IMG/VR virus record: IMGVR_UViG_3300044675_007236
DNA: 64,000 nt
Source of the DNA: a virus
Lineage: Duplodnaviria; Caudoviricetes
Reading direction: 5' to 3' (one strand)
Below, piece by piece: positions 39,005-52,903 of the stretch (position 1 is its first letter; each line of letters begins with the position of its first letter). The translations under genes and the position numbers were made by a program. The notes under the pieces were generated by a model. The model saw only the letters and a list, made by a program, of their open reading frames with translations. It did no database searches and was not told the origin of the DNA.

Positions 39005-41497
39005 CTAGTTCCTGGAAAGTTCGTCTAAGTTAATGTCACCTTCGTCAAACGGCGATTCAACTGATTTTTCCTTGAGGAACAAGGTTATATCGCCAACAGC
39101 CTCAAACGCGTTACGTAAACTGTCTTCTAGCTCTGGCATGTCAGACTTTCCGTAACGATCTTCAAATTCTTCACCGTGCCAGTAAAAGTTCATCAGAAGT
39201 CGACCGAGCGAATCTAAAGATTCTACTAGCGAAGAAAGATGGCGTTCGACAAGTGAGTCTTGTCTGACAGACTTAAGCATACCGGAAATCATCGTGGTGT
39301 CGAAAACTTCTTTTTGCCCTTGCGAACCGGCTTGCTGTGCAACCTGCATCGACGTATTGAAATCTTGAGATTCATAATTTTGCCACGGATCCCAAACACC
39401 AGGATCAGTTTGATCTGCACTCATGTGATTTAGACGGTAAACAGCATTGCCGCCGTATTGCGTGTTAGCCGAAGTACGCGGCCCGTATTGCTCGGTGCTG
39501 CGTTCGTCGGCTAGGTCGTCGTAGACAGGGGCGTCTGGTCCACCTGCCAATACACTGTAATTAGGATTAGCCTGCTTGTCGCTGCCGTACCCGGCTGCGT
39601 ACTCAATGCGGTAAACAGCACTACCACGAGCCTCGGCTTCTTTAAGAATTTCTCGAGCCTGCCCTTCACGCATACCGTGTACGCTTACCAAATCCCACAA
39701 AGCAGCTCGCTTGGAGAAGCTGTTTTTACCTAGCGCGGAGTCGATAAAAACATCTGTTCCATTGTTAAAAACCTTTAGCCGAGCTGTCTTTTCGTGAATA
39801 AGAAGTTGAATGTCGTCAATCTTGCCTAGGCGAATTGGGCTTTCTTCGTTACCTCCGACACCTACATAAGCATCAGGTAGCTTTAAAAATTTGAAGCTAC
39901 CTGGAACACGCAGCTCGCCAGAGATAGCTCGAAGTTTAGTACCTCGCTTGTTTTCTTTGTCAACGCAAAGCAAAGCGTCGTAGGTGCTTGGTTGATTGTA
40001 GCCATCCATAGAGTAAGGCTCGGTAATTTTTTGAAGCCTAGGCATAGTCGATGTTCGGTCGTCACGATAATCAGGATGTACAAAAAAATCGACTTTGTAA
40101 TTGCCGTCGCCAAGAGCTTCAATTACCTTGAACGGTACAGTTGCCGAACCTGTTGAATCTAAGCCAAGGTACGTGCTACCTTCAGACAAAGTGCTGGAAT
40201 CCGAAAGAGATTCAAACCAGTCATTCCATTCGTCGCGTTCGCTTATCTGGTCTGCAAAGATATTGGTAGCGTGGGTGTTTAGCCAACGGCGACCTTCGCC
40301 GCCCTCGCCAAGTCTTACAACGATAGCAAGGGGCTCACGACCGCGGTTGCTGCTACCGTGAGTAACAACTAACATTTTGTTGAATTGACCGGGTCGCTCT
40401 AAAACTCGATAAAGAGCTGTCTCAGACGGGTTAGTCAGTTTTTGCTCAATTTGTGTGTTATAGGTGCGGCTAACTTGAATGCCGCGACGATGATCGACAA
40501 TCAGCATTGTGTCGTTAAGCAATCGCTCGCGTTCTGCATCGTCGAGCTCGGGCATGCGGTTAGTTGTAACTGACTCTTGCGTGTAAAGCCTTAGGGCTCC
40601 TGCTTTTACGTGATCGACACTTTCAGGTTTTGCTTCAGCAAAAAGCCGCATACCTTCTAACTTAGGCTTAACCGAAGCTTGCTTTTTGACAATACTTTGT
40701 GCAGCTTGTTTAGTGTTTGCTTTGCACGCTGTACCCCAACGAACAAAGCAGTCGTTACCGTAAAATCTACTAAAAGCAGATTTAATTAACGGATATCGCT
40801 CAGATGCTAAGTAAGCCAGTTGCAGCATTTCAAAACTTTGTGGCATAACGTTGTTAAAGTCAAACGCAGCGGCATTCTTTGCCAAAGCCGCCTTAAATGG
40901 ATCGTTAACGACTAAAGCCTGGTCAAGCTTGCGCCCATTAAGCTCGTTACCAGTTGTCCTGAATAACGAACTTGCAGCCTTAGTTTTAAAAGCTGCAAGC
41001 ATTGGAAGAACTTGGCTAAAAGCAGATTTAGGCAACTGTTTAGGGCGGTAAGTGTCGCTGGCTCGCTTACCGCCGCCGATTGAAGGCGGAATGGAAAGCG
41101 TTCGAACGTCAGGGTAAACGCCACCAAGATCTCGAAGCTTACTTGCCGACGATTCACCTAGTATGTGCGGCTTTCGACTCATGACGTAATTGATCCAGTT
41201 TTCTTTCATCGGAACAAACGAATCGTTGTTCTTGATGTAAAGCAGCTCGTGCCCCTTAAGATCACCGTTAAGAAAAAAGACCGGAGCATACAACCATTGA
41301 GAACCAATTTGAAACCCGAAAACACCCATAGCTTTCGTGTTGTCTTCATTACGATCAACAAGTTGAAAGCCGATCATGTAGTCAAGCAAACGAGGGGCTT
41401 TATCTCGCAGATAAGCATAAGCTAGGCTAGAAAAAGCTTGTTCAAACTCGGTCTCTCCACCGCTACCACCGATACTAGCCTGCTTAATCGCGTTCAT
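39005..41497 (-). CDS. Large putative virion protein (KxA-rich)
   Basis: 830 aa; KQAS at N-terminus plus KSAF, KAAS, KNAA, KQAA, KQAS, KRAA, KQAN. Confidence 0.6.
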   Translation of the reverse strand: MNAIKQASIGGSGGETEFEQAFSSLAYAYLRDKAPRLLDYMIGFQLVDRNEDNTKAMGVFGFQIGSQWLYAPVFFLNGDLKGHELLYIKNNDSFVPMKENWINYVMSRKPHILGESSASKLRDLGGVYPDVRTLSIPPSIGGGKRASDTYRPKQLPKSAFSQVLPMLAAFKTKAASSLFRTTGNELNGRKLDQALVVNDPFKAALAKNAAAFDFNNVMPQSFEMLQLAYLASERYPLIKSAFSRFYGNDCFVRWGTACKANTKQAAQSIVKKQASVKPKLEGMRLFAEAKPESVDHVKAGALRLYTQESVTTNRMPELDDAERERLLNDTMLIVDHRRGIQVSRTYNTQIEQKLTNPSETALYRVLERPGQFNKMLVVTHGSSNRGREPLAIVVRLGEGGEGRRWLNTHATNIFADQISERDEWNDWFESLSDSSTLSEGSTYLGLDSTGSATVPFKVIEALGDGNYKVDFFVHPDYRDDRTSTMPRLQKITEPYSMDGYNQPSTYDALLCVDKENKRGTKLRAISGELRVPGSFKFLKLPDAYVGVGGNEESPIRLGKIDDIQLLIHEKTARLKVFNNGTDVFIDSALGKNSFSKRAALWDLVSVHGMREGQAREILKEAEARGSAVYRIEYAAGYGSDKQANPNYSVLAGGPDAPVYDDLADERSTEQYGPRTSANTQYGGNAVYRLNHMSADQTDPGVWDPWQNYESQDFNTSMQVAQQAGSQGQKEVFDTTMISGMLKSVRQDSLVERHLSSLVESLDSLGRLLMNFYWHGEEFEDRYGKSDMPELEDSLRNAFEAVGDITLFLKEKSVESPFDEGDINLDELSRN

Positions 41498-41520
41498 CTT
41501 TAGTTTCCGTTAAGTGAATA

Positions 41521-41739
41521 CTACTTCTTCCAACCGGCTGCTATGTCAAAACCGGAAAGATGTGAAAGCATATTTTGAGCTTCTTGTGTGGCAACTGCTT
41601 CAAAAAAACTAGCTATCTTTTCTTTGTCTGCATTAACTGTTTTTTTCTTTGGCTTTTTCTTCGTGCCTGTTGTAGGTGGAAGTAAATAAGCCGCAGCTAA
41701 CTTAGAATCAAAGCCGCCCAGTGGAGGTAAAATTGACAT
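41521..41739 (-). CDS. Small hypothetical protein
   Basis: 72 aa; basic stretch KKKPKKK, KLAA and KIAS motifs. Confidence 0.5.
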   Translation of the reverse strand: MSILPPLGGFDSKLAAAYLLPPTTGTKKKPKKKTVNADKEKIASFFEAVATQEAQNMLSHLSGFDIAAGWKK

Positions 41740-41801
41740 TATAGGACCTGTGAATATGAAAATTCATCCGGCGAATTGTACAGTTTATCTGTTTTGTCGG
41801 T

Positions 41802-41813
41802 ATTTTAGCAAGT
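41802..41813 (-). promoter_or_regulatory. Putative promoter ACTTGC-TAAAAT
   Basis: Extended -10 in the 81-bp gap after the beta-prime C-half gene; resembles the ACTTTGGC-TATAAT motif. Confidence 0.4.
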
Positions 41814-41820
41814 GAAACCT

Positions 41821-44800
41821 TTACAACAGTCTAGATGTAATAGGTTTTGCTGAGACAAGACTGTCTTTCGGCTCTGGAATATCTGGAATAGGAACATCTG
41901 GTAGTTTGTAGGGAGCCTTAGGTTGTATAACAACGCGATTAGATACATCGCCAAAATCAGTACCGGTTACCAGACTAGGTACAAAGCTTGAACCACGTTC
42001 TTCGCTAGTAGCACCCCTAGCCGTAGATTCAAGCAAACTTTCTTTTAGTCCTGACCCGTACATCTGCGTAAGCCAATCCGGATCATGCTGGAGCTGGTAC
42101 ATGCCTCGCACCATATGCGACTCAAAAGGCGGCGGATTGTCGTGAACTTCCAAAGCCTGCACGCCAAACTCGTCAAAGTCTTTAAGCATCGAAGGTCTAA
42201 CTTTAGTGCCGATCGTGTAGTGAAGAACCGGCCTTTCAAGATATTTACCAACGGCTTTCTTAGGCGACAAAGCTTGAAAACCGTCTCTAGGTTTGTACGT
42301 GTGCTCGAGAGTCGTGTAAGGAATAACGTCGTCTTGTACGTTATCGCCCACTTCTTCAGTAAGTCTAACGTGATTAATTAGACCCCGAGCAAGAAGCTCG
42401 ATGTTTCTGCGGTGCCCAAACATACCGCTAGAAGCCATGGCCTTTTTGAACTCTTGAACAAAATAGCGACGACCTTCTCCTACGCCTTTGTATTTAGTAA
42501 TGGTTGCAGGATTGGGGATGCCGTCACTAAGCATATCACCAGCTTCAATAGTATCGCCTTTCTTGACTTTGAGATCGTAGCCAGCGTTTACGTAATGTCG
42601 TTCACCGCCAATTGTAATATAGCTACCGCCTGCGGGAGCGGGTTCGATACGCTGTACTGTGCCGTCAACGGTAGCGTGAGCTGCACCACCCTGCATTTTC
42701 TTAGGTGTTTGAATGAGCTGATTAATGTACTGGAAGCCACCGACAGCTTTTTCCTGCCCTGCAACACCCCCGGAGTGCTTGGCAGAATTGGAAACTATCA
42801 GACCATTTGCCAGCACAAACAAGTGATCTGGATGATCTACTTCAATATCATAAGTTCGCAATTGACCGACTATTGTTTGTTTTTTTCTGTAAAAAAAACA
42901 AGTGTTAACTGAAGAATTGAAATTTCCAGCTTTTTTTAAAGTTTCATTTTTACAGCCGGGTATAAAATCAAGCATTAGCTTTATAAATTTATCGACTTCT
43001 TGCTGCCTACAAATTACAAAACTGTACAAAATTCTTTTTCTATTCTTTGACTGCAAGTCTATTGGCCCCGAATGAATAGCGAAACGAACACGCAAAATAT
43101 CGCGAATTGCGGTTATAAGCTGCAGCGATGTTGACGAATAACTGACATAGTACGCTTTGTGTTTCCGACGAGACTGCGACAAGTAAATGGAGCCGTCGCT
43201 GGCAAATAAACCTCCAAGCAGATTTAATGTAGATCTTGAATCCCACTCCCAAATGTCAGCTGGAACTGTTTTTTCGTACGCGTACTTACCGTAAAACTTC
43301 AACTCTTTCAGTTTTACAAGCACAGGATTACGGTCACCTGAAAGTAGTCTACCTGTCGTTGGACATTGGTTAACAGTATCGACTATCTGAGAAATTCGAT
43401 AGTAACCCTTTTGGCCTGCAAGAAGAGTTGCTTTTAAACCTAGACTTGTCAAAAGTGGCTGTATATCGGCGATCAGACTTGGATCAAAGCAAGACAAATG
43501 CACACCGTGCACACTTACCGTGTAGCAACCATCACCTAACAGAAGACCCAGTAAAAGAGACATAGCCTCGTGTTTTTTACCGATAAACTGGTGTGCCACA
43601 CTATTTGGCATTACACCGCACAACCTAACGCATTTTTCGTCCGCAGCCCAAATACCCTTTTCAGCTATTTCAGTTGTTGGAGCCCATCTTCGAGCTACTG
43701 CTAAAATCTTATGCTCCCGAGTCGAAATAAGCGACACGCTTTCTTTTGTTCTTGAAACATTAAAAACAGTTTCTACGCAATCTTTAAGCCCGTTGTTGTA
43801 CACGTTTAAAACTTTTACCGGACGTAAATTTCCATTTGTATCCGAGCCGAAAACATAATCTCCTGGTACGATTTCTTCTATAGGTTTTACACTGCAATCA
43901 GCCATGCGAACCAAAGTCTTTTCGGCCAAGCAAAGTTGCCCTTGGCTAATCGGTTCGCTGAGAGCTTGAGCTGCCTGCAACCCTACTTGCTCGCCGCGAC
44001 CCGGTAATAAACCTTTCTCACGTACCCCGACATCCCTAGCGTAAACGCCTCCCTCTGGCGAACCTCCAATAAGCGGCGAACGAACTAAAATGCGGTTTTT
44101 ACCCAGACGTTTAAGCTGCTTAAGAATCTTGGGAGTAAGCGGCGTGTTACGCCGAAATGGCCCGGTGTCTTGAGCAAGCAAAGAACCTTCGTTGTCCATG
44201 TCCTCAGTGTCGACGATTAGCCCGCGTAAGCCAGGGTTTTCATCTTCACCTTCTTCGTCGACAACTACAAGCCTATGCCCAGCTTGATTGAGTTGTTTCG
44301 ACAAAAATCCCGCTTCCTGTGTAGCAAACTTTGTGGCGATAATACCACGACGAGCTCCATAAGTACCGGCCCAATATTCTGCGGGTGTCAGCCCTTGGCT
44401 GTAACTTCGCAGTACTGGTACCGGTATAACCTCGTCGCGGTGATCGGAATAAAGCATGTCCGCAGCTAGCAGACTCGCCAGATTCATCGGCTTACCTCGA
44501 GAACCGGATAGTACTTGTAGGCCTAGCGGATTGTTTTCCTTTACGGCTTCATCCAATACGGAACGCTGCTGTGCTGAGCTTTCCCTACCTACAACGCGTA
44601 CGATCTTATCGTTACGTTGCTTGTCCGTAAGATTGTCATCGGCCAGAATACCGTATAGCTCACCTTTGATTTTATCTTGAATAGCCGCTGCAACTTTGCT
44701 TTTTCTAAGATGTCGAGCGCCGAAAGACAAGCCGCCTTGCTCTTGAGCAGAATGCCTGCCTATTTGGCTTAGTTGAAAGGAAACATCTCGGTACTTTTCC

Positions 44801-44931
44801 GGATGTTTCCTTGCGACTTCTTTAAGCAAAGAATTAAGAGCAGATTTGTCCAGAACGCGACTATAGTCCCGTAATTCCTCGGGTAAAACATCGTTTACTA
44901 GAATTTGGCCTACGGTCGTTTCTAATGCCAT
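41821..44931 (-). CDS. rpoC: RNA polymerase beta-prime C-terminal half (bridge helix, trigger loop, jaw) with intein
   Basis: 1036 aa (654 after splicing); TTVGQIL start, bridge helix GARRGIIATKFATQEAGFLSKQL, trigger loop AAQALSEPISQGQL/SAKHSGG, jaw VKKGDTIEAGDMLSDG. Confidence 0.9.
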   Translation of the reverse strand: MALETTVGQILVNDVLPEELRDYSRVLDKSALNSLLKEVARKHPEKYRDVSFQLSQIGRHSAQEQGGLSFGARHLRKSKVAAAIQDKIKGELYGILADDNLTDKQRNDKIVRVVGRESSAQQRSVLDEAVKENNPLGLQVLSGSRGKPMNLASLLAADMLYSDHRDEVIPVPVLRSYSQGLTPAEYWAGTYGARRGIIATKFATQEAGFLSKQLNQAGHRLVVVDEEGEDENPGLRGLIVDTEDMDNEGSLLAQDTGPFRRNTPLTPKILKQLKRLGKNRILVRSPLIGGSPEGGVYARDVGVREKGLLPGRGEQVGLQAAQALSEPISQGQLCLAEKTLVRMADCSVKPIEEIVPGDYVFGSDTNGNLRPVKVLNVYNNGLKDCVETVFNVSRTKESVSLISTREHKILAVARRWAPTTEIAEKGIWAADEKCVRLCGVMPNSVAHQFIGKKHEAMSLLLGLLLGDGCYTVSVHGVHLSCFDPSLIADIQPLLTSLGLKATLLAGQKGYYRISQIVDTVNQCPTTGRLLSGDRNPVLVKLKELKFYGKYAYEKTVPADIWEWDSRSTLNLLGGLFASDGSIYLSQSRRKHKAYYVSYSSTSLQLITAIRDILRVRFAIHSGPIDLQSKNRKRILYSFVICRQQEVDKFIKLMLDFIPGCKNETLKKAGNFNSSVNTCFFYRKKQTIVGQLRTYDIEVDHPDHLFVLANGLIVSNSAKHSGGVAGQEKAVGGFQYINQLIQTPKKMQGGAAHATVDGTVQRIEPAPAGGSYITIGGERHYVNAGYDLKVKKGDTIEAGDMLSDGIPNPATITKYKGVGEGRRYFVQEFKKAMASSGMFGHRRNIELLARGLINHVRLTEEVGDNVQDDVIPYTTLEHTYKPRDGFQALSPKKAVGKYLERPVLHYTIGTKVRPSMLKDFDEFGVQALEVHDNPPPFESHMVRGMYQLQHDPDWLTQMYGSGLKESLLESTARGATSEERGSSFVPSLVTGTDFGDVSNRVVIQPKAPYKLPDVPIPDIPEPKDSLVSAKPITSRLL
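42787..43932 (-). mobile_element. Intein with LAGLIDADG homing endonuclease (382 aa) in RNAP trigger loop
   Basis: Begins CLAEKTLVRMADCSVKPIEEI, block C LLGLLLGDG, block E LLGGLFASDG, ends YDIEVDHPDHLFVLANGLIVSN followed by +1 Ser. Confidence 0.92.
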
Positions 44932-45179
44932 CCAAAAAGCTCCATGTCTAGCTTCTTGTTGATGCGACGGATCTCAGCTCCTATCGCATCGCTGTTTCTT
45001 ACCTGCATGTCCACCGAGCGAAGCAAGTTTTGCTCAGCTTGCTCGATTCGCTTTTCTAGTTGCCGAATATGTAGTTGCTGGTCGCCTTGTTTTGCAAGAC
45101 AACCTACAAACATAGCAGCCACCAAAAACATTAAAAGAAATGTTACAGATATTACTCTATTTTGAATTTCAAAACACAT
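44922..45179 (-). CDS. Small membrane-anchored coiled-coil protein
   Basis: Likely start MCFEIQ at 45179; one hydrophobic helix (ending FVGC) then coiled coil. Confidence 0.5.
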   Translation of the reverse strand: MCFEIQNRVISVTFLLMFLVAAMFVGCLAKQGDQQLHIRQLEKRIEQAEQNLLRSVDMQVRNSDAIGAEIRRINKKLDMELFGWH

Positions 45180-45183
45180 ATGA

Positions 45184-45861
45184 CTACTCGTCGCTGTCGT
45201 CAGCATTAACGTCAGTTAGACTTTCTGCTTGCAGTTCTTCGGACGACTGTTCTTGCTCGGCTTCGGACGGCTGTTCTTGCTCAACTTTCGAAGTCGTATC
45301 TAGGGAAGCAGCAAGACCAACTGTTTCACCTACGTTGTCTTCAATAACAGCTTCGCTAGCTTTTCGTTTTCGGCCTTTCTTTTGCAAACCTGCCCCTTGA
45401 GTTGTGGCAGAAGGCGATGCCTCAAGCTCAGTCTTGTTTTCGACGACAGGTTCAAGTTTACTTTCGATAGAAACAGCGTCAGCTTGTTCTCGGGTAAGCG
45501 TGTTTCGACCCACAGCCAAATCAATCGTTGTCCTGATGTTTGACAAGTCTTTCTCGTAGACGCTAAGCGTAACTGCGTTAAAGCCGTTTGAAAACGCAGA
45601 GATAATCGAAGTAAGCGTATCTGCAGGATCCAAAATATCAATATTTTGCGATCGCCTATCCGCGTTCTGTGCTTCGACCGAATCAACGTGTACTTCGGGT
45701 GATCTGTAATACTTGTCTGCCGAAGCTGCTACGTCGTCAACAGTTTGGTGATATTCAAAAGATTGTCGCCTCTTTACACGACCTTCACTGGTTTGCCGGA
45801 AAAGCAAATTATCCTTAGATTTGTAGTACTTGTCGTTAGATCGATTAGCTGGGTCAGTCAT
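45184..45861 (-). CDS. Hypothetical acidic protein
   Basis: 225 aa, acidic disordered C-terminus, tight packing. Confidence 0.55.
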   Translation of the reverse strand: MTDPANRSNDKYYKSKDNLLFRQTSEGRVKRRQSFEYHQTVDDVAASADKYYRSPEVHVDSVEAQNADRRSQNIDILDPADTLTSIISAFSNGFNAVTLSVYEKDLSNIRTTIDLAVGRNTLTREQADAVSIESKLEPVVENKTELEASPSATTQGAGLQKKGRKRKASEAVIEDNVGETVGLAASLDTTSKVEQEQPSEAEQEQSSEELQAESLTDVNADDSDE

Positions 45862-45862
45862 T

Positions 45863-46087
45863 TTAAAACCTTATCTGGGTAACTGTGACTTTTTCATTGA
45901 TTCCAAGCTTACCCAATGTCTCTTGGAAATCTTTGTCCGTACAATGTGAAACCATAACAGAACTGTTACTACCGTACAACGCGGCTACGCTAATTGGTGT
46001 GCCATCAGGCATTCTAACAATTACCTGAGAAGCCGTAAGAACGATAGGCTTCTGTCCTACTCGTTCAAGAATCTCAATATTAAACAC
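45863..46087 (-). CDS. Small hypothetical protein
   Basis: 74 aa, overlaps upstream gene by 8 nt. Confidence 0.55.
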   Translation of the reverse strand: MFNIEILERVGQKPIVLTASQVIVRMPDGTPISVAALYGSNSSVMVSHCTDKDFQETLGKLGINEKVTVTQIRF

Positions 46088-46700
46088 CGTTTTGCCTGTT
46101 TCTTAGAGCTGCGATTGCTTTGAATGCATTACTTTGTTGTGCCTTTTGCGTTTCGACAAGCTCGCTATATGGCGAACCGTATTCCCAGGGATTATCGTGA
46201 GCGGCTTTCATAGGCTGCATCGGTTGGATAGAACCTAGAGCACCAGCTGCAGGCGCACTTCCTTGCTGCTGACTTGCCATCTGGCTAAGATCGTCAGGCG
46301 TTGCAACCATTTCAGCCGCAGGTATCGCAACACCCATGGCGTCGCAGAGTTTAGCAAGCAGCTTTTTCATCTGCATGATTTCGACGTTAATATCGATCTT
46401 AGGTTTGAGCATCCCGCCACCAGCACCACCACCAGCCGCAGCACCACTGGAAGCTACAGCCTGCTGCACCATTTGCTGGATAGCTGGCATTAGTGCCGCC
46501 ATGGGGTCACCACCGCCGCCACCGCCACCCATAGCAGCAGGATCGGCAGGCATACCACCGCCCATAGCTGCCGGATCCATAGGAGCTCCACCGGCGGCTG
46601 GATCAGCCGGAGCTCCCATTGCCGGATCACCCGCAGCTACAAAACCTTGCTTGTAAAGGTTATTAATCGCTTCTTGTAACAAAACAGAATTGATACCCAC
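46080..46700 (-). CDS. Low-complexity Gly/Ala/Met/Pro protein
   Basis: 206 aa with repeated DPAAMGG motifs; GGAG RBS. Confidence 0.6.
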   Translation of the reverse strand: MGINSVLLQEAINNLYKQGFVAAGDPAMGAPADPAAGGAPMDPAAMGGGMPADPAAMGGGGGGGDPMAALMPAIQQMVQQAVASSGAAAGGGAGGGMLKPKIDINVEIMQMKKLLAKLCDAMGVAIPAAEMVATPDDLSQMASQQQGSAPAAGALGSIQPMQPMKAAHDNPWEYGSPYSELVETQKAQQSNAFKAIAALRNRQNGV

Positions 46701-46714
46701 AATACTCTCCGGCT

Positions 46715-49700
46715 CTAAGCTTCAAGGATTTTGATTTTGTCGTCAACGGAAATTTCGTTCCTACTATAGGCACGTTTTGCGTCAGCAACGTTACGAAAAA
46801 TTTTGACTGGTCGATCGCTTTTACTTTTTGTCGCATGATACAGCCCGCTTACATATTCGTTAGACGGAGCGTGTACTACAGACTTAAAGTCCGACATACT
46901 AAACAAGTTGCGACTTGGTAGCAACCTAGCATAAGCTTCTTCTACGGATTTCTCCAGGCTAGGTACGTGATAATTCATGGCATCTCCGTCAAAATCCGCG
47001 CCAAAGCCTTTAACTACCAGCGGGCTTACCTGCAGCGTATCGCCTTTAGTTAGCCTGGGCTTCATTGCAAGTATACCAAACTTGTGCAAAACCGGAGCAC
47101 GGCTAATGTAGACAGGCCTTGCATCCATTTCCTCAAGCAAAGAACTACGAGCTAAATCTGTACGGTCGACGATTTGCTGTCTTGCCTCTCTAAGCGACAT
47201 ACCCCTTCGTACAAGCCGACGAGTTACAAATTTCTCATACGCCTTGAAAGCTTTATCTTCGGGCAAGCCTACCGAGTCCATATCTAGGTCTGGATTAGGA
47301 GTAATAACTGCTCTTCCGACGTTATCGACTGTTGTTGAAATAAGCTTACGTTGCAAGGTTCCAAATTTAGGGCTGCTACCAAAAACAGATTTCAGCACAC
47401 CTTGTACATTCTTGTCTCGACTTTTCTGGCTAATCGGATCGCCTAGACCCGTTACCGCTCGAAAAGCCTGGTACGTTGCAAGCCGCTCAGGGCCAGATCC
47501 GTCTGCACCTACGGCTTTCTGTATCTCATTAAGGTTTTTGTTGGCTTCAAACAATTCCTTGTAAAGGTAATTAGCGTCATTGATAAGCGGCATGTCGTTG
47601 CTCATCATGCTAATCGGCCTAAACATTGGAGGCAAAACCGGCACTTTGTTAAGCATGTAGTCCGATGGATGCAACTTCAGCTTCTGTGAACTCTTAAGGT
47701 AGCCCAGTTTGCGAATTGCGTTGTCTCGCTCGGAAGCTCGACCCGCTGCAATTACAGCTCGGGTCTTGTTTATTTCGCTTTCCAGGTTAATTGATTTGAG
47801 TGCTTTTTGAATTGCCGCCGGACCTGAACCGTGTCCATCTAGGTTTTCGTCGCCAGCAATAATTGAATCGAACTTTTTCTGCGTAAGCCCTAAGATCTTA
47901 CGTATAGGTTCTTCCATAACCGGATTTGGCATAGGTTCGTGTAGCTTAATGAAAGTCCAGCGGTTACCACCGTGCCCACCGGTCTTAGCCTTGTCAAACA
48001 AACCGCCTGGTACTTCCTTCAAGTCATTACCCCAGTCTACACCCTCGGCACTGGTCAACTCACGATCACCGGCCAGCTCATCTATGTCCTTGTCCGTAAG
48101 AGCCATGATATTAAGCTGAGTGCCCTGTTTGGTAACATTGACACCTGCAGCTCTAAGCTGGTTAACAAACTTCTGGTACACATACGGTACTTTGGTTGCT
48201 TGCGGGTTGTACCCAGACATAAACTGCATCCAATAGTCATCGTTCTTTTGCCCGCGAACAGAGCTGATGTCCTGAAGCGTAGCCGTTGCACCGTGGGAAA
48301 GCAAAGCGTTGGTATCCAGCATACCAATTCTTTTTGAACCTTCGGATCCACCTTTAGCCGGTGTATCTTCCATGGTGTAAGAACCGCCACCTCGACTTTG
48401 ACCTTTGCCCTCTGCTGTATGATGCAACTTCATAAAAAAGCGACTGCCAGTAGCAATGCCTTTTACTTTACGTTCACGTGTAGGATCGACAATGTCCTCG
48501 AGGTCGCTTAAGCCTTCTTTGGCGAGCTCCTGAATAACCCATTCGTTCATATCCTTACTTGAATCAAAGTCTTCGACCTTGATCGGCTTGCCGCGTTTTT
48601 CTGCAATTTTACCCAGCAAAAGCTCAGACAATTGACTTGGATTAGTTCTTGTAACAACTCCCAAAGGATTGACCAACACTTCAAAAGGCCTGCCTTCTGC
48701 GTCGTGCGGCATCTGCGAGTCAGGAATAACGTCAGCAATAACCCCTTTGTCCCCGTAACGTCCCGACAGTTTATCCCCGATTTGCATAGGTGCCGACATT
48801 TTAACTACAACTGTTGGACCTCTTTTGCCCATTACAACATCTGTAACTACACCACTGTCGTTATGATCCCAAGTAATACTTGCATCGTTAAATGCGCTTT
48901 TACCCTTCTTGTGAACTTTGTTGTGTGCAGTTTCTTTTTCTCGCAACCCAAGAATAAGCGGGTCACCCTGATTTACAACTGTTCCAGGTTTAATCACACC
49001 ACTGGAGTCGATATTAGCCAAGATTTGCTTATTGTACTTACCGGGATACGTCGATATGTACTTGTTCTTGCCGCTTATTGTTCTATCGTCTAGCTCGAGA
49101 TCGTGCTGATACATATGCTCAGAACTCATTTTCTTGGCGTAACTTTCAGAGATGACTGTGGCATCTTCAAAGTTCTTACCTTGCCAAGCAATGTAGGCTG
49201 TCCTTGCGTTCTTACCCAAAGCAGCAGCACCAGTCTTATCCGTGTAGTTCGAATAAGCCAAAAGCTGATCCGGATTAAATCGGTCACCTGCGTTCAGTGC
49301 TGCCGTCTGATGAACAAATGTTTTGCGGTTAAACGGGAAGTTGGTATACAGCTCGTGCGTGTCTTCAGTACCGTCGTCGTAACGTACGCGAATACCGTTG
49401 TCGTCAACGCCAAGTACCGTGCCTGCCTGCGGGGCTCTAAGAGCACCCATGCCCTTTGAGTACAATTCCTCGTAGCTTTGATTACCGTTTGTACCTGGAA
49501 CAGCCGATTGTACCAGCGGAGCTTCTGCGTCAACTAACGGCAAAGCCTGGGTTGTCATACGCGAAGCCATAACAAGCCGTTGGCCTTTAACCTGGCTTTT
49601 CATGGGAATCATGTTTGATAGCTGATTAAACGCCTCTTCCATTGCCGGTAGTTCTAAGTCGATTTGAGACTTAGGCACATAAAGCATTTTGCCGCCACGC

Positions 49701-51154
49701 ATCGCCGGAACACGTGGAGCATCTTCCTGTTGACTGCCTGGAAACCCAAGCGTTAAATCGGCTACTTCTTGCGGTGTTCTGTAAACCAGTTGCCCGGTCT
49801 TTAGCTCTCTAAACTGAGCGTATAGCTTGCCGTTCTTACCTTTACGCACGCCTCGAGCAAGGTACGTGTCAACACCAACTTTGCCACTTTCCGGTGTCCT
49901 TAAAGGGTCCACGTAACCAAACATACTAGGCTGGACGCTTCTTGCTTCCTTAGGAATAGCATCTGTCGACGGAATACCGCCTTCGCCCAGCCGACTAACC
50001 GATGTAGTTTTGTCGTAAAGTTCAGCCGGGTTAATTTCTTCAATAGCCTGCCCCAGTCCGCTTGTTAGCAAAGCCGAAAGCACTTGTTTACCTAAAGCCG
50101 ACGAGGGCATGCTTTGCAGATTACCTTTCCATGAAGACTTCCATAACAGTTGCCTTCGAATGCCATCTTTATCTCGCTGCAACCTTTCAGCAATCAAATC
50201 TTCTGGCCCCAAGAATTGCTGGTAGGTAAGAGCATCTCGATCGTCCGGGTCAGCCTCATTACGACTAACCTGAACAAGTTTTTTGGTGATATCCAGCAAA
50301 GTATCTAGTGTAATATTTTTGTGCGGTCTGCCGAGTGTTCTAGTGGTTACCTGTGGATCAAGTTCCATGCGTGCAAACTTGTCAATCAGTGCTTGCCGTT
50401 GCTCCACCTCAGAGCCCTGGAGCTCAGTGTTGTTTAGAAACTTCTGTTTTAGCTTTGCGTATTCAGAAGCTGCGTCGTTGTTGTAGTTAGTGGCAAACAA
50501 ATCTTTGCCCCACGCCTCTTTAAGCTGTTCGGGAGTTGCCCCCATGAGCTTTAACAGCGGTGTAAGACCGACTGTACCTTGCCCTACTTTAATCTTGAAA
50601 ACACCTTTTTCTGGGTCTAAAAAGTAGCGGTGCGATACACCTTTGCCGGGCATAACGTTAGCGTGAGATTCTATCTCGCCATTGTCTCGAATACGTGTGT
50701 AGACACCGGGAAGAAGTCTCTGCTGGTTCTTTAGCGTGTACTCGGTACCGTTGTTAATGAACGTACCGCGGTCTGTCAAATGCGGAATCGTGGCTAGCAC
50801 AGCTCGCTTACTGTCTACTACCTGCTGCGTTTCGTTATCTAATAATTCCCAAGTACCTCTAAGCCTTCGGCCAACACTTATCCCGTTTAGAATTGCTTCT
50901 TTTTGCTGCTTTTTACTTACCTTGTCCGGATCAGCATATTCAATGTTCGTAAGTCTTAACGTATGCCTTGCGTTCGAAATAGGCTCAATAGCATTGGCAG
51001 CCGACAGCACGTTGTCGTAAATATTTTTACGCGTCGCGTCGGTATCACCGAACTCACGAAAGTCTAACTCCTCAGGCTTAGGTAAAACCTGAGGAGTCGG
51101 CTGCATCAAGCTCGAAGACGTCGAACCTAGTATGTTCGAATCTATTGGAGACAT
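46715..51154 (-). CDS. rpoBC: RNA polymerase beta subunit fused to the catalytic N-half of beta-prime
   Basis: 1479 aa; beta motifs IPHLTDRGTFINNG, RTPESGKVG, NFEDATVIS, GDKLSGRYGDKGVI, NPLGVVTRTN; beta-prime motifs PVLPPMFRP, SRAPVLHK, GADFDGD (46982-47002). Confidence 0.95.
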   Translation of the reverse strand: MSPIDSNILGSTSSSLMQPTPQVLPKPEELDFREFGDTDATRKNIYDNVLSAANAIEPISNARHTLRLTNIEYADPDKVSKKQQKEAILNGISVGRRLRGTWELLDNETQQVVDSKRAVLATIPHLTDRGTFINNGTEYTLKNQQRLLPGVYTRIRDNGEIESHANVMPGKGVSHRYFLDPEKGVFKIKVGQGTVGLTPLLKLMGATPEQLKEAWGKDLFATNYNNDAASEYAKLKQKFLNNTELQGSEVEQRQALIDKFARMELDPQVTTRTLGRPHKNITLDTLLDITKKLVQVSRNEADPDDRDALTYQQFLGPEDLIAERLQRDKDGIRRQLLWKSSWKGNLQSMPSSALGKQVLSALLTSGLGQAIEEINPAELYDKTTSVSRLGEGGIPSTDAIPKEARSVQPSMFGYVDPLRTPESGKVGVDTYLARGVRKGKNGKLYAQFRELKTGQLVYRTPQEVADLTLGFPGSQQEDAPRVPAMRGGKMLYVPKSQIDLELPAMEEAFNQLSNMIPMKSQVKGQRLVMASRMTTQALPLVDAEAPLVQSAVPGTNGNQSYEELYSKGMGALRAPQAGTVLGVDDNGIRVRYDDGTEDTHELYTNFPFNRKTFVHQTAALNAGDRFNPDQLLAYSNYTDKTGAAALGKNARTAYIAWQGKNFEDATVISESYAKKMSSEHMYQHDLELDDRTISGKNKYISTYPGKYNKQILANIDSSGVIKPGTVVNQGDPLILGLREKETAHNKVHKKGKSAFNDASITWDHNDSGVVTDVVMGKRGPTVVVKMSAPMQIGDKLSGRYGDKGVIADVIPDSQMPHDAEGRPFEVLVNPLGVVTRTNPSQLSELLLGKIAEKRGKPIKVEDFDSSKDMNEWVIQELAKEGLSDLEDIVDPTRERKVKGIATGSRFFMKLHHTAEGKGQSRGGGSYTMEDTPAKGGSEGSKRIGMLDTNALLSHGATATLQDISSVRGQKNDDYWMQFMSGYNPQATKVPYVYQKFVNQLRAAGVNVTKQGTQLNIMALTDKDIDELAGDRELTSAEGVDWGNDLKEVPGGLFDKAKTGGHGGNRWTFIKLHEPMPNPVMEEPIRKILGLTQKKFDSIIAGDENLDGHGSGPAAIQKALKSINLESEINKTRAVIAAGRASERDNAIRKLGYLKSSQKLKLHPSDYMLNKVPVLPPMFRPISMMSNDMPLINDANYLYKELFEANKNLNEIQKAVGADGSGPERLATYQAFRAVTGLGDPISQKSRDKNVQGVLKSVFGSSPKFGTLQRKLISTTVDNVGRAVITPNPDLDMDSVGLPEDKAFKAYEKFVTRRLVRRGMSLREARQQIVDRTDLARSSLLEEMDARPVYISRAPVLHKFGILAMKPRLTKGDTLQVSPLVVKGFGADFDGDAMNYHVPSLEKSVEEAYARLLPSRNLFSMSDFKSVVHAPSNEYVSGLYHATKSKSDRPVKIFRNVADAKRAYSRNEISVDDKIKILEA

Positions 51155-51160
51155 TGAGGT

Positions 51161-52045
51161 TTAAACACTTGCAGGTTCTGAGGAAATTGGAGCAGGAATG
51201 GCGTACAGCTCAGGCGGTTGTGCCATTGCAGCTCGCCTGGCTCGTTCACGCAAAGCTTTATCAAGAATTGCCTTGCGACTGTTCTTTTTCATTTGCTTAT
51301 CGACAACATAGTAACCAAGTGGCAATGTTCCTAAGGTGTAAGCAGCGGCTAGCCCAGCCATTGAGCCAGGAGCATTTTCAAAAAAAGCCGCTTTTTCTGC
51401 TTTTTCTTGCAATCCAGCAAAGGCTTTATCCAAGTTAGCCGACACACTGCCGTCGTTATCGCTAGCAGTCTTATAGCTTCCAAGCAGTGCCGATTCGTAA
51501 TCTCGCTTTGCTTCGTCTAGCTCGGATTCTGTCTGAGCTCGGCGTTGTTTGTCCATCAAAGCGTCAACACCTTTCCAACCGCCATAGAAGGCAAGCGGAA
51601 AACCTAGAAGTGCCGAAGGGATAGTGTAGGGCAATCCGACAGGAGCTGTAGCCCCGGAAAACCAAGAGTTATTAGCTGTGTTTTCTACAGCTCCCTTCTC
51701 AGCATACGGTACGGGCATTTCAACTACACGCCCAGTTCGCTTTCTCTTCCTAGGTGTAGTCGCTTCACCAAGACCGCTAAGCCCACGTAAAGCAGCACCC
51801 CCACCGGCTAAAATAGCCATGCCTTTTAACAGACTGCTTACGGTGTCTTTGTTAAGTTGCGTTGCGTAGGCATTTTGGAAGTCTGTTACTTCCTTAGGGG
51901 CCTTGGCAAACGGATTGAGCGAACTCATGAGCCGAGTGCTACTAGAAACTTGCGGAAGCGGCTTATTTGTATCTAGGCCGCCAAGCAGATCATTCTGAGC
52001 TTCCTTGATTTGAGATAGAAGCTGCTTGGCATCTTTTTCGTTCAT
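51161..52045 (-). CDS. Putative internal/ejection protein with hydrophobic Gly-rich helices
   Basis: 294 aa; KGAV, KTAS, KAAF; three hydrophobic Gly/Ala segments. Confidence 0.55.
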   Translation of the reverse strand: MNEKDAKQLLSQIKEAQNDLLGGLDTNKPLPQVSSSTRLMSSLNPFAKAPKEVTDFQNAYATQLNKDTVSSLLKGMAILAGGGAALRGLSGLGEATTPRKRKRTGRVVEMPVPYAEKGAVENTANNSWFSGATAPVGLPYTIPSALLGFPLAFYGGWKGVDALMDKQRRAQTESELDEAKRDYESALLGSYKTASDNDGSVSANLDKAFAGLQEKAEKAAFFENAPGSMAGLAAAYTLGTLPLGYYVVDKQMKKNSRKAILDKALRERARRAAMAQPPELYAIPAPISSEPASV

Positions 52046-52057
52046 CGTTCACCTTGG

Positions 52058-52420
52058 CTAGCTGCTTGGCATAAGATTTGGCCTACCGTCTTCCAAGAAC
52101 GGTTCAACCCATTCTATGTAAATTCGATACCCATTATCATCCGCTTTAGGCTTGCGATCAATATGAATAAGCTTGAACCAGTCATTAGCTATCGCATCCA
52201 TTACTTGACAGTATACAGCGTTTTGTTCGCTATCTTCTGTGTCAAAAGTACTGTTCTTAAAATCGTTTACGCGACGAATACGATCTTCGTACTCTTCTTC
52301 CTTCAACATCGGAGCTGCTGGCCCACGAAAAGGTAGCCCATCAATATCCGCTCTGTTCCAGTAAACTTCGCCTCGACCGTTGCCGTCTTTGCGATTTAAA
52401 AACTTTACTAAACCGCTCAT
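52058..52420 (-). CDS. Hypothetical protein
   Basis: 120 aa, AAGGAAGG RBS, tight packing. Confidence 0.6.
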   Translation of the reverse strand: MSGLVKFLNRKDGNGRGEVYWNRADIDGLPFRGPAAPMLKEEEYEDRIRRVNDFKNSTFDTEDSEQNAVYCQVMDAIANDWFKLIHIDRKPKADDNGYRIYIEWVEPFLEDGRPNLMPSS

Positions 52421-52429
52421 AACCTTCCT

Positions 52430-52903
52430 TTACATAAAAACACGACCAGATTGCTTGCGATCTTTCTTAAAGCTTCTAGCAGCTTGTTGTCTGCGAAGCT
52501 GCTCAGCCATTCGATGGTACGTATCAGCTAGTTCTTGTTGTTTAGCTTCACCGACATCTTCTTCACTAATGTCTGTAGCTTGATTTTTAAGAACTGCCGC
52601 AACCCCGCCAATAGTTGGCGGGGCAGCTGCAGCCAGTAGGGCAAGCGGAGATAAATCTTTTGCCAAGCCTGTAACATCGCGAACCATGCCAAGGCCAGAT
52701 TTAGCTCCACCAGTTAGAAAACTTGGCACAGAGCTAGCCGCGTTTAAAAGCGTAGAACCAAGGCTTGGAGCCGCTGACGCGAAGGCTTGTTTATCAAAAA
52801 ACTCACTAGCCTGCTTTGATAGCCCGGCTATTTGAGACCCTGACAAACCTTCTTCGACGCAGCGACTAAGAAAACCTAGCTTAAATGCTTCAGCAGGCGA
52901 CAT
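52430..52903 (-). CDS. Putative internal protein (KxA, amphipathic/hydrophobic helices)
   Basis: 157 aa; KQAS, KQAF, then LALLAAAAPPTIGGVAAVL. Confidence 0.55.
   Translation of the reverse strand: MSPAEAFKLGFLSRCVEEGLSGSQIAGLSKQASEFFDKQAFASAAPSLGSTLLNAASSVPSFLTGGAKSGLGMVRDVTGLAKDLSPLALLAAAAPPTIGGVAAVLKNQATDISEEDVGEAKQQELADTYHRMAEQLRRQQAARSFKKDRKQSGRVFM

Follow-up and report, generated by a model that had tools for sequence, protein, structure and literature searches.

To our knowledge, all cellular multisubunit RNA polymerases (RNAPs) assemble their two large subunits, beta and beta-prime, on an alpha-type platform, and the only studied exceptions are the enzymes of the phages phiKZ and AR9, which are sigma-less and hard to compare with the bacterial enzyme. 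Here we describe a polymerase locus from a lake-water jumbo phage (Caudoviricetes, Duplodnaviria), found on a stretch of 64,000 nucleotides (nt) from the IMG/VR record IMGVR_UViG_3300044675_007236 (the whole of this stretch is called the window below). In this locus beta is fused to the first part of beta-prime in a single chain (chain 1, P0001), and the rest of beta-prime is encoded by a second gene (chain 2, P0002). In our view the two genes are likely to specify the catalytic core of an RNAP that belongs to the phage itself, is bacterial in type and sigma-dependent, and consists of two polypeptides; it would be made late and packaged.

In Helicobacter and Wolbachia the C-terminus of beta is joined directly to the N-terminus of beta-prime (rpoBC), likewise in the window, but these bacteria have an undivided beta-prime, possess alpha and omega and retain the zinc sites. 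In cyanobacteria and plastids beta-prime is divided after its barrel, again as in the window, into gamma (RpoC1) and beta-prime (RpoC2), and gamma is the best match of the beta-prime-N part of the window's chain 1 in PDB and Foldseek comparisons. However, beta is a separate subunit there, alpha and omega are present, and the break is estimated from alignment offsets to lie downstream of TTPG, whereas that of the window is upstream of TTVG. Polymerases of the phiKZ/AR9 type resemble the window's in being phage-encoded, in having no alpha or omega and in having beta-prime divided after the barrel, and a virion form of them exists (PMC7598289). They differ in that the break falls earlier, that beta itself consists of two or three separate chains, none of them joined to beta-prime, that they are far more divergent from bacterial RNAP and that there are usually two sets per genome. 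Furthermore, the phiKZ and AR9 enzymes have no sigma-70 homologue, with gp68 or gp226 instead (PMC7598289; PMC13282480). The window's enzyme, with beta whole and fused, a later cut and a sigma factor, is not of this type, and it is the presence of the sigma homologue that sets its family apart.

A second group of phage polymerases is formed by the mReC phages. These are tailed phages, not yet cultured, whose beta and beta-prime resemble the bacterial subunits but fall outside the cellular enzymes in trees (Weinheimer & Aylward 2020, PMC7481178). These were selected by the motif NADxDGD together with two matches of at least 800 amino acids (aa), and the supplement of that study lists separate beta (~1011-1364 aa) and beta-prime (~904-1004 aa) proteins (PMC7481178). 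Identity of the window's family with the mReC clade was therefore rejected, since beta and beta-prime of the latter are separate and full-length.

The partition seen in the window also occurs, at 30% identity, in cultured phages, namely Salmonella phage Arash (OQ632216; gp206 of 1525 aa and gp216 of 606 aa) and the Vibrio phages D69, D148 and D181. In Arash the break between Gp206 and Gp216 is at the same residue (with the 30% identity extending over 96% of chain 1), a homologous sigma factor (Gp10) is encoded, and the genes lie in the structural region beside a homologue of the window's 830-aa protein. Arash differs in belonging to clade A of the family rather than to the window's clade C, in having no intein in the trigger loop, and in the spacer between its polymerase genes, which is 4.8 kilobases (kb) long and carries opposite-strand genes (that of D69 measures 0.6 kb). 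Metagenomic relatives in clade A keep the four cysteines of the second zinc site, unlike the window (Arash lies outside that alignment). The Arash authors annotated gp206 and gp216 simply as beta and beta-prime (PMC10585845). If the Arash type is defined by a first chain that extends to E. coli beta-prime ~550 and a second that starts from ~572 with xTTxG, the window belongs to it.

Architecture of the two chains

The locus is encoded on the minus strand (Table 1). The first-pass annotation, made from the letters alone, had read a 1479-aa chain running from the beta N-terminus through GADFDGD to the equivalent of E. coli LHARVKV, which open reading frame (ORF), Pfam and BLASTP comparisons with E. 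coli show to be exact to the residue. Beta occupies residues ~20-1007 of P0001, and residues ~1008-1479 correspond to E. coli beta-prime ~25-550 minus the zinc-binding domain, the C-terminus being at the LHARVKV position (beta-prime 544-550). Pfam recognises Rpb2_6 (residues 624-928, E 1.5e-46), Rpb2_3, Rpb1_1 and Rpb1_2 (1343-1408, E 1.9e-20) on this single chain. By BLASTP, residues 19-224, 420-936 and 1060-1337 of E. coli K-12 RpoB align with P0001 21-215, 281-778 and 790-1007, and residues 181-550 of RpoC with P0001 1111-1476; among solved structures, complete beta chains are matched by P0001 ~54-1016, and both cyanobacterial gamma and the N-halves of bacterial beta-prime by 1096-1474. Identity of the window's enzyme to bacterial RNAP is ~23-29%.

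Both double-psi barrels are in chain 1, as had been claimed, while the bridge helix and trigger loop are in chain 2 (Pfam, PDB alignments and E. coli BLASTP). The beta-type barrel is recognised by Rpb2_6 and by the loop GDKLSGRYGDKG, which has both catalytic-site lysines (GDKxxxRxGxKG), and the beta-prime-type barrel by Rpb1_2 and by GADFDGD, in which all three Asp are kept and the Asn is replaced by Gly. Among the 121 nearest cluster representatives, 37 have GADFDGD and 76 have NADFDGD.

Table 1. Coordinates of the polymerase genes, their features and associated genes in the window
Feature	Position	Strand	Basis or remark
Sigma-70-family factor, 246 aa	2705..3445	-	In baseplate/tail block; adjoins Baseplate_J gene 87-1754
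830-aa gene downstream of beta-prime-C	39005..41497	-	Homologue of Arash gp218, virion structural protein
P0002 gene, beta-prime-C, 1036 aa (654 aa spliced)	41821..44931	-	ORF, Pfam, PDB and E. coli alignments
LAGLIDADG homing intein, 382 aa, P0002 residues 334-715	42787..43932	-	C1...SN|S, inside trigger loop
Bridge helix, P0002 residues 192-223	44263..44358	-	
Spacer between polymerase genes, four tightly packed small ORFs	44922..46700	-	ORF list
Spacer ORFs	46080-46700, 45863-46087, 45184-45861, 44922-45206	-	ORF list
P0001 gene, beta::beta-prime-N, 1479 aa	46715..51154	-	ORF, Pfam, PDB and E. coli alignments
Metal-binding motif GADFDGD of the beta-prime barrel, P0001 residues 1385-1391	46982..47002	-	Gly for usual Asn
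Beta-prime clamp-helix (coiled-coil) region, P0001 residues 1175-1213	47516..47632	-	Alignment to cyanobacterial gamma
Beta-to-beta-prime junction	47942..48163	-	Global alignment, AlphaFold model, independent contigs
Beta barrel catalytic loop GDKLSGRYGDKG, P0001 residues 793-804	48743..48778	-	E. coli equivalent GDKMAGRHGNKG

The passage from beta to beta-prime had been placed near 48100-48170 without a stop. Indeed, beta ends with ...NQLRAAGVNV (P0001 residues 998-1007, nt 48134-48163) and passes nearly seamlessly into the beta-prime N-terminal segment; independent contigs have 0 differences here, so that the junction is no assembly artefact. At the junction GGLFDKAKTGGHGGNRWTFIKL has a short Gly-rich loop in the place of the E. 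coli zinc-binding domain (C70-C88). An AlphaFold model of P0001 600-1479 has a mean predicted local distance difference test (pLDDT) score of 79.9, and since this score is 76-95 across the junction (model residues 401-511), a floppy linker between beta and beta-prime is not predicted. The structural comparison with bacterial RNAP that had been proposed as a check bears out the assignment: Foldseek searches with this model have cyanobacterial/plastid gamma and bacterial beta-prime chains as top matches, with E down to 1e-31.

Chain 2 starts, after an intergenic gap of 1783 nt (1.8 kb had been stated), with MALETTVG, which corresponds to E. coli beta-prime 572 (TTVGR 572-576). Pfam finds Rpb1 domain 5 (Rpb1_5) plus LAGLIDADG and Hint domains in it, and in solved structures it aligns with beta-prime from ~570-660 onwards. 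In E. coli chains, beta-prime 714-929 is the counterpart, by alignment, of its bridge helix and its trigger loop (residues 317-333, then from 716 on). The two parts of the trigger loop lie either side of the intein, and judging from the sequence the loop would be intact only after intein excision. The intein is flanked by ...EPISQGQL and SAKHSGG..., and its guanine-plus-cytosine content is 40.1%, vs 48.3% in the exteins. It is missing from a relative whose RNAP chain is 91% identical (L004), and an intein at the same site, 47% identical, occurs in L029, a pattern that suggests recent homing. Its C-terminal end is Ser-Asn, not His-Asn. Once spliced, the two chains would total 1479 + 654 = 2133 residues, in agreement with the ~2130 first estimated, against 2749 for E. 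coli beta plus beta-prime.

Position of the break

To compare break sites, the last part of each N chain and the first part of each C chain were aligned with E. coli beta-prime. In the window, Arash and D69 the break is between the LHARVKV strand and TTVG (E. coli beta-prime 550/572). In phiKZ (gp55/gp74), Ralstonia phage RP13 and Escherichia phage EP_H11 it falls right after PSxEMVxG, ~25-60 residues earlier, so that what is the tail of chain 1 in the window belongs to the C chain in these phages. In cyanobacteria gamma reaches ~70 residues past the point where chain 1 stops (the P0001 end is aligned with gamma 556 of 626), and residue 66 of RpoC2 aligns with P0002 residue 81; from these alignment offsets, rather than from a direct alignment, the cyanobacterial cut is estimated to lie ~15 or more residues beyond the phage break.

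A 2020 review states that the jumbo-phage and cyanobacterial breaks coincide (PMC7598289). Because the three sites differ at the residue level, this coincidence holds at the domain level only, where the window, phiKZ-type and cyanobacterial breaks are all in the same stretch after the beta-prime barrel; as an account that would cover the window's own break it was rejected at residue level.

The local structure at the break can be read from an unbroken relative, L026, in which ...TDVVKV-GG-HETTIGRL... is collinear in alignment with ...DDKIKILEA(stop) and MALETTVGQIL of the window. In an AlphaFold model of this region (mean pLDDT 84.6, and >90 around the break site) a helix is followed by a strand at 394-397, a two-residue turn and a second strand at 400-402, and the C-terminal tail of the P0001 600-1479 model has the same strand-helix-strand pattern as the L026 model. 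The break is thus predicted to be in the turn of a beta-hairpin, which in the model is the least disruptive place to cut. The helix-plus-hairpin module (~38 residues) has been deleted in about half of the unbroken forms (L025, L096, L099-L102 and L106), and the module is therefore peripheral.

Cysteines, zinc sites and partner subunits

There are no cysteines in P0001 or in the P0002 extein, and 11 in the intein. Both beta-prime zinc sites (E. coli C70/72/85/88 and C814/888/895/898) are absent from the window's chains. The zinc-binding domain is replaced by TGGHGGN, and at the second site (Zn2) the cysteines have been replaced (DEEGEDENPGL ... GGSPEGGVYARD) in the window's sub-lineage, while clades A and B, as well as L027, retain all four (alignment columns ~720-800). 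Among 105 intein-free nearest homologues of chain 1, 95 are cysteine-free.

Genome-wide searches for partner subunits were run on a complete relative, G001 (204.8 kb, with terminal repeats and an RNAP chain 91% identical), which has a single polymerase set. No match to RNA_pol_A_bac (PF01000) or Rpb6/omega (PF01192) was found in G001 at E<=1, whereas both models recovered their targets in 14/14 control genomes; an alpha dimer and omega as assembly subunits were thus not found in G001 by these profiles. The statement of the first-pass annotation that no alpha or omega is visible holds for the window, and has to be amended by the sigma-70-family gene in the window (Table 1).

This sigma gene was located by tblastn. 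Its product matches Pfam Sigma70_r3 (29.3 bits vs a cut-off of 25.3), phrog_351 (E 1e-9) and the Arash sigma Gp10 (BLASTP E 2e-12). A homologue occurs in G001 and in 5/5 further genomes searched (clades A, B and C), including one unbroken-form genome, so that sigma and polymerase co-occur in 7/7 genomes or records checked. In bacteria the clamp helices of beta-prime are the main docking site of sigma region 2, and these helices are conserved in P0001, as seen in the alignment to cyanobacterial gamma. With a sigma encoded alongside the core and a conserved docking site, the sequences point to a sigma-70-dependent holoenzyme. Pfam Sigma70_r2 had no match in G001. A weak Sigma70_r4 match to a 441-aa protein (L037 1471-2796; G001 78050-79375) was rejected as a sigma factor, the protein having an N-terminal helix-turn-helix and a metallophosphoesterase-like body.

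Distribution of the layout in phages

A protein search of a 5.8-billion-protein collection (E<=1e-20) returned 762 proteins. At least 120 protein clusters, 54-100% identical to P0001, have the same length and C-terminus; specifically, 105 of the 121 nearest cluster representatives are ~1450-1530 aa long and end at the shared ...(I/V)LE(S/A) position, the longer ones carrying inteins. In IMG/VR there are at least 392 related stretches.

The break point was surveyed in 105 loci. About 75 of them have the window's partition, with beta-prime-C starting from the same xTTxG position, 0.6-8.4 kb downstream. A single unbroken ORF was found in 15 (L025, L026, L094, L096-L103 and L105-L108), of about 2050 aa (1993-2159), L105 being longer with 3010 aa, and a few loci show other variants. 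These unbroken forms belong to the same family as the window (33-35% identity), have the same beta-to-beta-prime junction and are collinear over the break, but have no stop and start at the hairpin and keep the Zn2 cysteines. The fusion-plus-split design had first been put forward as an independent one; the break site is indeed its own (E. coli 550/572), while the design itself is usual across a large phage family, to which cultured phages and unbroken forms also belong.

Some of the loci depart further from this pattern. In L028 (9986-13660) and L030 the chain begins at the equivalent of P0001 ~484, and beta is apparently split too; a 532-aa ORF just upstream in L028 was considered as the missing N-terminal part of beta and rejected, having no BLASTP similarity to it. 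The polymerase genes of L029 (4290-24091) are full of insertions, with beta::beta-prime-N in six pieces and three intein-like inserts in beta-prime-C. L091 (13349-13351), and also L092 and L093, have an in-frame TGA inside the beta catalytic loop (...SGRYG-TGA-GDKGVV...), directly after an apparent intein C-end (...WSQN|S); the three contigs come from related samples, and the TGA could be a case of recoding, a sequencing or assembly quirk, or the mark of a dead gene.

PHROGs v4 has no family with the fused architecture, P0001 matching separate beta-like and beta-prime-like families. No description of the fusion or split was found in the mReC study (PMC7481178), a comparative jumbo-phage study (PMC7824862), the 2020 review (PMC7598289) or a 2026 review (PMC13282480). 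Whether the architecture is already standard among described phage RNAPs had been raised as a point that could overturn the proposal: it is in public records, as in Arash, where GenBank has it merely as 'beta' and 'beta-prime', and it is apparently undescribed in the literature.

History of the split and the fusion

The beta::beta-prime-N region supplied ~1430 columns for the trees, in which E. coli and E. faecalis served as outgroups. Clade A (Arash, the Vibrio phages and four metagenomic loci) and clade C, that of the window (support 100/100), consist of split forms throughout. In a quick tree the unbroken forms are one clade (Shimodaira-Hasegawa approximate likelihood ratio test, SH-aLRT, 85) in a basal trichotomy. 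In a careful, outgroup-rooted tree they branch off at the base as a grade, with weak support, and the split forms together make up a single clade (ultrafast bootstrap, UFBoot, 79; SH-aLRT 99.9). Forcing the unbroken forms together costs 4.2 log-likelihood units and is not rejected (approximately unbiased test, p-AU 0.28).

A single change of state is enough in either tree, so a break at precisely this residue probably has one origin. As to direction, the best tree, when rooted, leans towards an unbroken ancestor without establishing it. Spacer content is not conserved across the family, as would be expected if small genes had been gained and lost repeatedly after the break.

Authenticity and expression of the locus

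At least a dozen metagenome runs of lake and fresh water, dated 2016-2024, contain nearly the whole window, and the same phage population recurs in lake metagenomes over these years. Logan contigs from two independent runs have 0 differences and 0 gaps relative to the window. The junction and the P0001 stop are spanned by the contigs X10 46166-48423 and X9 47080-48639 and 46373-47069, and the P0002 start by X10 44258-45016; the intein borders are likewise spanned by contigs from independent runs with no differences or gaps. Exact matches also occur among contigs of a 2017 lake-water metatranscriptome, at 44167-46122 (spacer ORFs and part of beta-prime-C) and 48092-48344 (the beta/beta-prime junction). 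These weakly support expression of the locus, since DNA can contaminate RNA libraries.

Function and alternative explanations

In the phage-owned, packaged polymerase that we favour, chain 1 is the whole of beta continued covalently into beta-prime to just past the metal-binding barrel, and both halves of the active site are thus in one protein. Chain 2 supplies the remaining beta-prime (bridge helix, trigger loop, jaw and the clamp's C-terminal part), with intein excision needed first. Chain 1 would end on the first strand of the hairpin and chain 2 would begin on the second, and because the cut lies in the turn, with one strand for each, the chains could re-pair non-covalently. The covalent link between beta and beta-prime may do for assembly what the alpha dimer does in bacteria, and the phage sigma would direct the polymerase to phage promoters. 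Synthesis would be late, alongside the head proteins; the enzyme would then enter the particle and travel with the DNA to begin transcription independently of the host polymerase, a course to which the Arash particle proteome points. The break itself would have arisen once from an unbroken ancestor, probably via DNA inserted at the hairpin turn, and may have been functionally near-neutral.

Packaging in the virion is argued by analogy. In the Arash particle preparation Gp206 has the highest spectral count (3516), above the major capsid protein, with Gp216 at 1210 and the sigma Gp10 at 467 (PMC10585845). The polymerase genes of the window lie in the head-morphogenesis block, beside the gene for the 830-aa homologue of the structural protein gp218, and in Arash and D69 the portal gene is just upstream.

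A more far-reaching version of this proposal is tentative, and we would not call it probable: a self-sufficient, zinc-free, alpha- and omega-less, sigma-70-dependent holoenzyme of three polypeptides (~2130 + 246 residues), packaged in the capsid, in which the covalent link replaces the alpha platform.

Several points weigh against the proposal as a whole. Activity, sigma dependence and independence from host alpha are predictions from sequence for every member of the family. The absence of alpha and omega was read from Pfam profiles, and a divergent or non-homologous assembly factor, or host alpha, is possible. The hairpin was predicted on the relative L026 rather than on the window's own protein pair, the base of the tree is poorly supported so that a split ancestor with one re-fusion is possible, and the contigs from the RNA library may derive from DNA. 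The Asn of NADFDGD is N458 in E. coli, which contacts the ribose of the incoming NTP (nucleoside triphosphate), and since this position is Gly in the window, sugar selectivity may differ. Finally, the Arash authors allow for either packaging or mere co-purification of abundant enzymes (PMC10585845).

This last point leads to an alternative that we consider improbable, in which this sigma-dependent polymerase of two chains is produced only once infection is under way and serves middle or late genes, host RNAP reads the early genes, and the signal in Arash particles is carry-over of an abundant protein. Carry-over was raised by the Arash authors themselves (PMC10585845), the scan for sigma-70-type promoters around the genes was at background, and the sigma factors of many large phages serve the host polymerase. 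Such carry-over sits less well with Gp206 topping the spectral counts of the Arash preparation, in which Gp216 and the sigma are also present (PMC10585845), and with the location of the genes within structural blocks family-wide (next to the portal in Arash and Vibrio phage D69, in the head block here). Moreover, the complete relative G001 has only one polymerase set, so that this single enzyme must also serve early if the phage is host-independent.

It is likewise unlikely, in our judgement, that the phage chains replace the host beta and beta-prime in a hybrid enzyme, assembling on the host alpha dimer (perhaps with omega) in the manner of the Helicobacter and Wolbachia rpoBC. Such a hybrid predicts the absence of a phage alpha gene equally well, and the enzyme is much closer to bacterial RNAP (by its identity and sigma dependence) than the phiKZ-type enzymes are. 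Against this, beta and beta-prime are already covalently tethered, an enzyme packaged to act on arrival would gain from self-sufficiency, and by analogy the polymerases of phiKZ and AR9 function in the absence of alpha (PMC7598289). An artefact or a decaying gene (mis-assembly, a frameshift, or a pseudogenised rpoBC captured from a bacterium) is effectively refuted already and carries next to no weight, given that the sequence is identical in independently assembled runs from several studies, that hundreds of homologues down to 30% identity have the same ends, that the catalytic motifs are intact and ribosome-binding sites present, and that the family is a distinct clade on a long branch away from the bacterial outgroups.

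Spacer and neighbouring genes

None of the four spacer ORFs has a Pfam or PHROGs match. Near relatives keep only the first two, and across the family the spacer varies from 0.6 to 8.4 kb. A spacer ORF as a universal extra subunit was rejected, as none is family-wide and none has such a match. GGAG ribosome-binding sites precede the first spacer ORF and P0002. A scan of 41000-52500 for sigma-70-type promoters and for terminators was at shuffle background, and the genes at the locus are packed without room for signals. The position of the 830-aa gene downstream of beta-prime-C is kept through the family.

Significance

The Arash-type family has a plainly bacterial sequence with a sigma factor, yet no alpha or omega gene, and in the window's lineage the zinc sites are lost as well. 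Its members come in natural partitions of one chain, two chains and further-split forms. It is therefore a natural experiment on which covalent links and accessory subunits a bacterial-type polymerase needs, on how subunit boundaries evolve, and on how a phage brings its own sigma-dependent polymerase. Direct tests are feasible because cultured members exist (Arash and the Vibrio phages D69, D148 and D181). Structural studies and orthogonal transcription systems could profit from an enzyme that is compact, cysteine-free and self-contained. If the self-sufficient form proved true, no smaller holoenzyme of the bacterial type would be known, and virion multisubunit RNAPs would have a third, independent kind.

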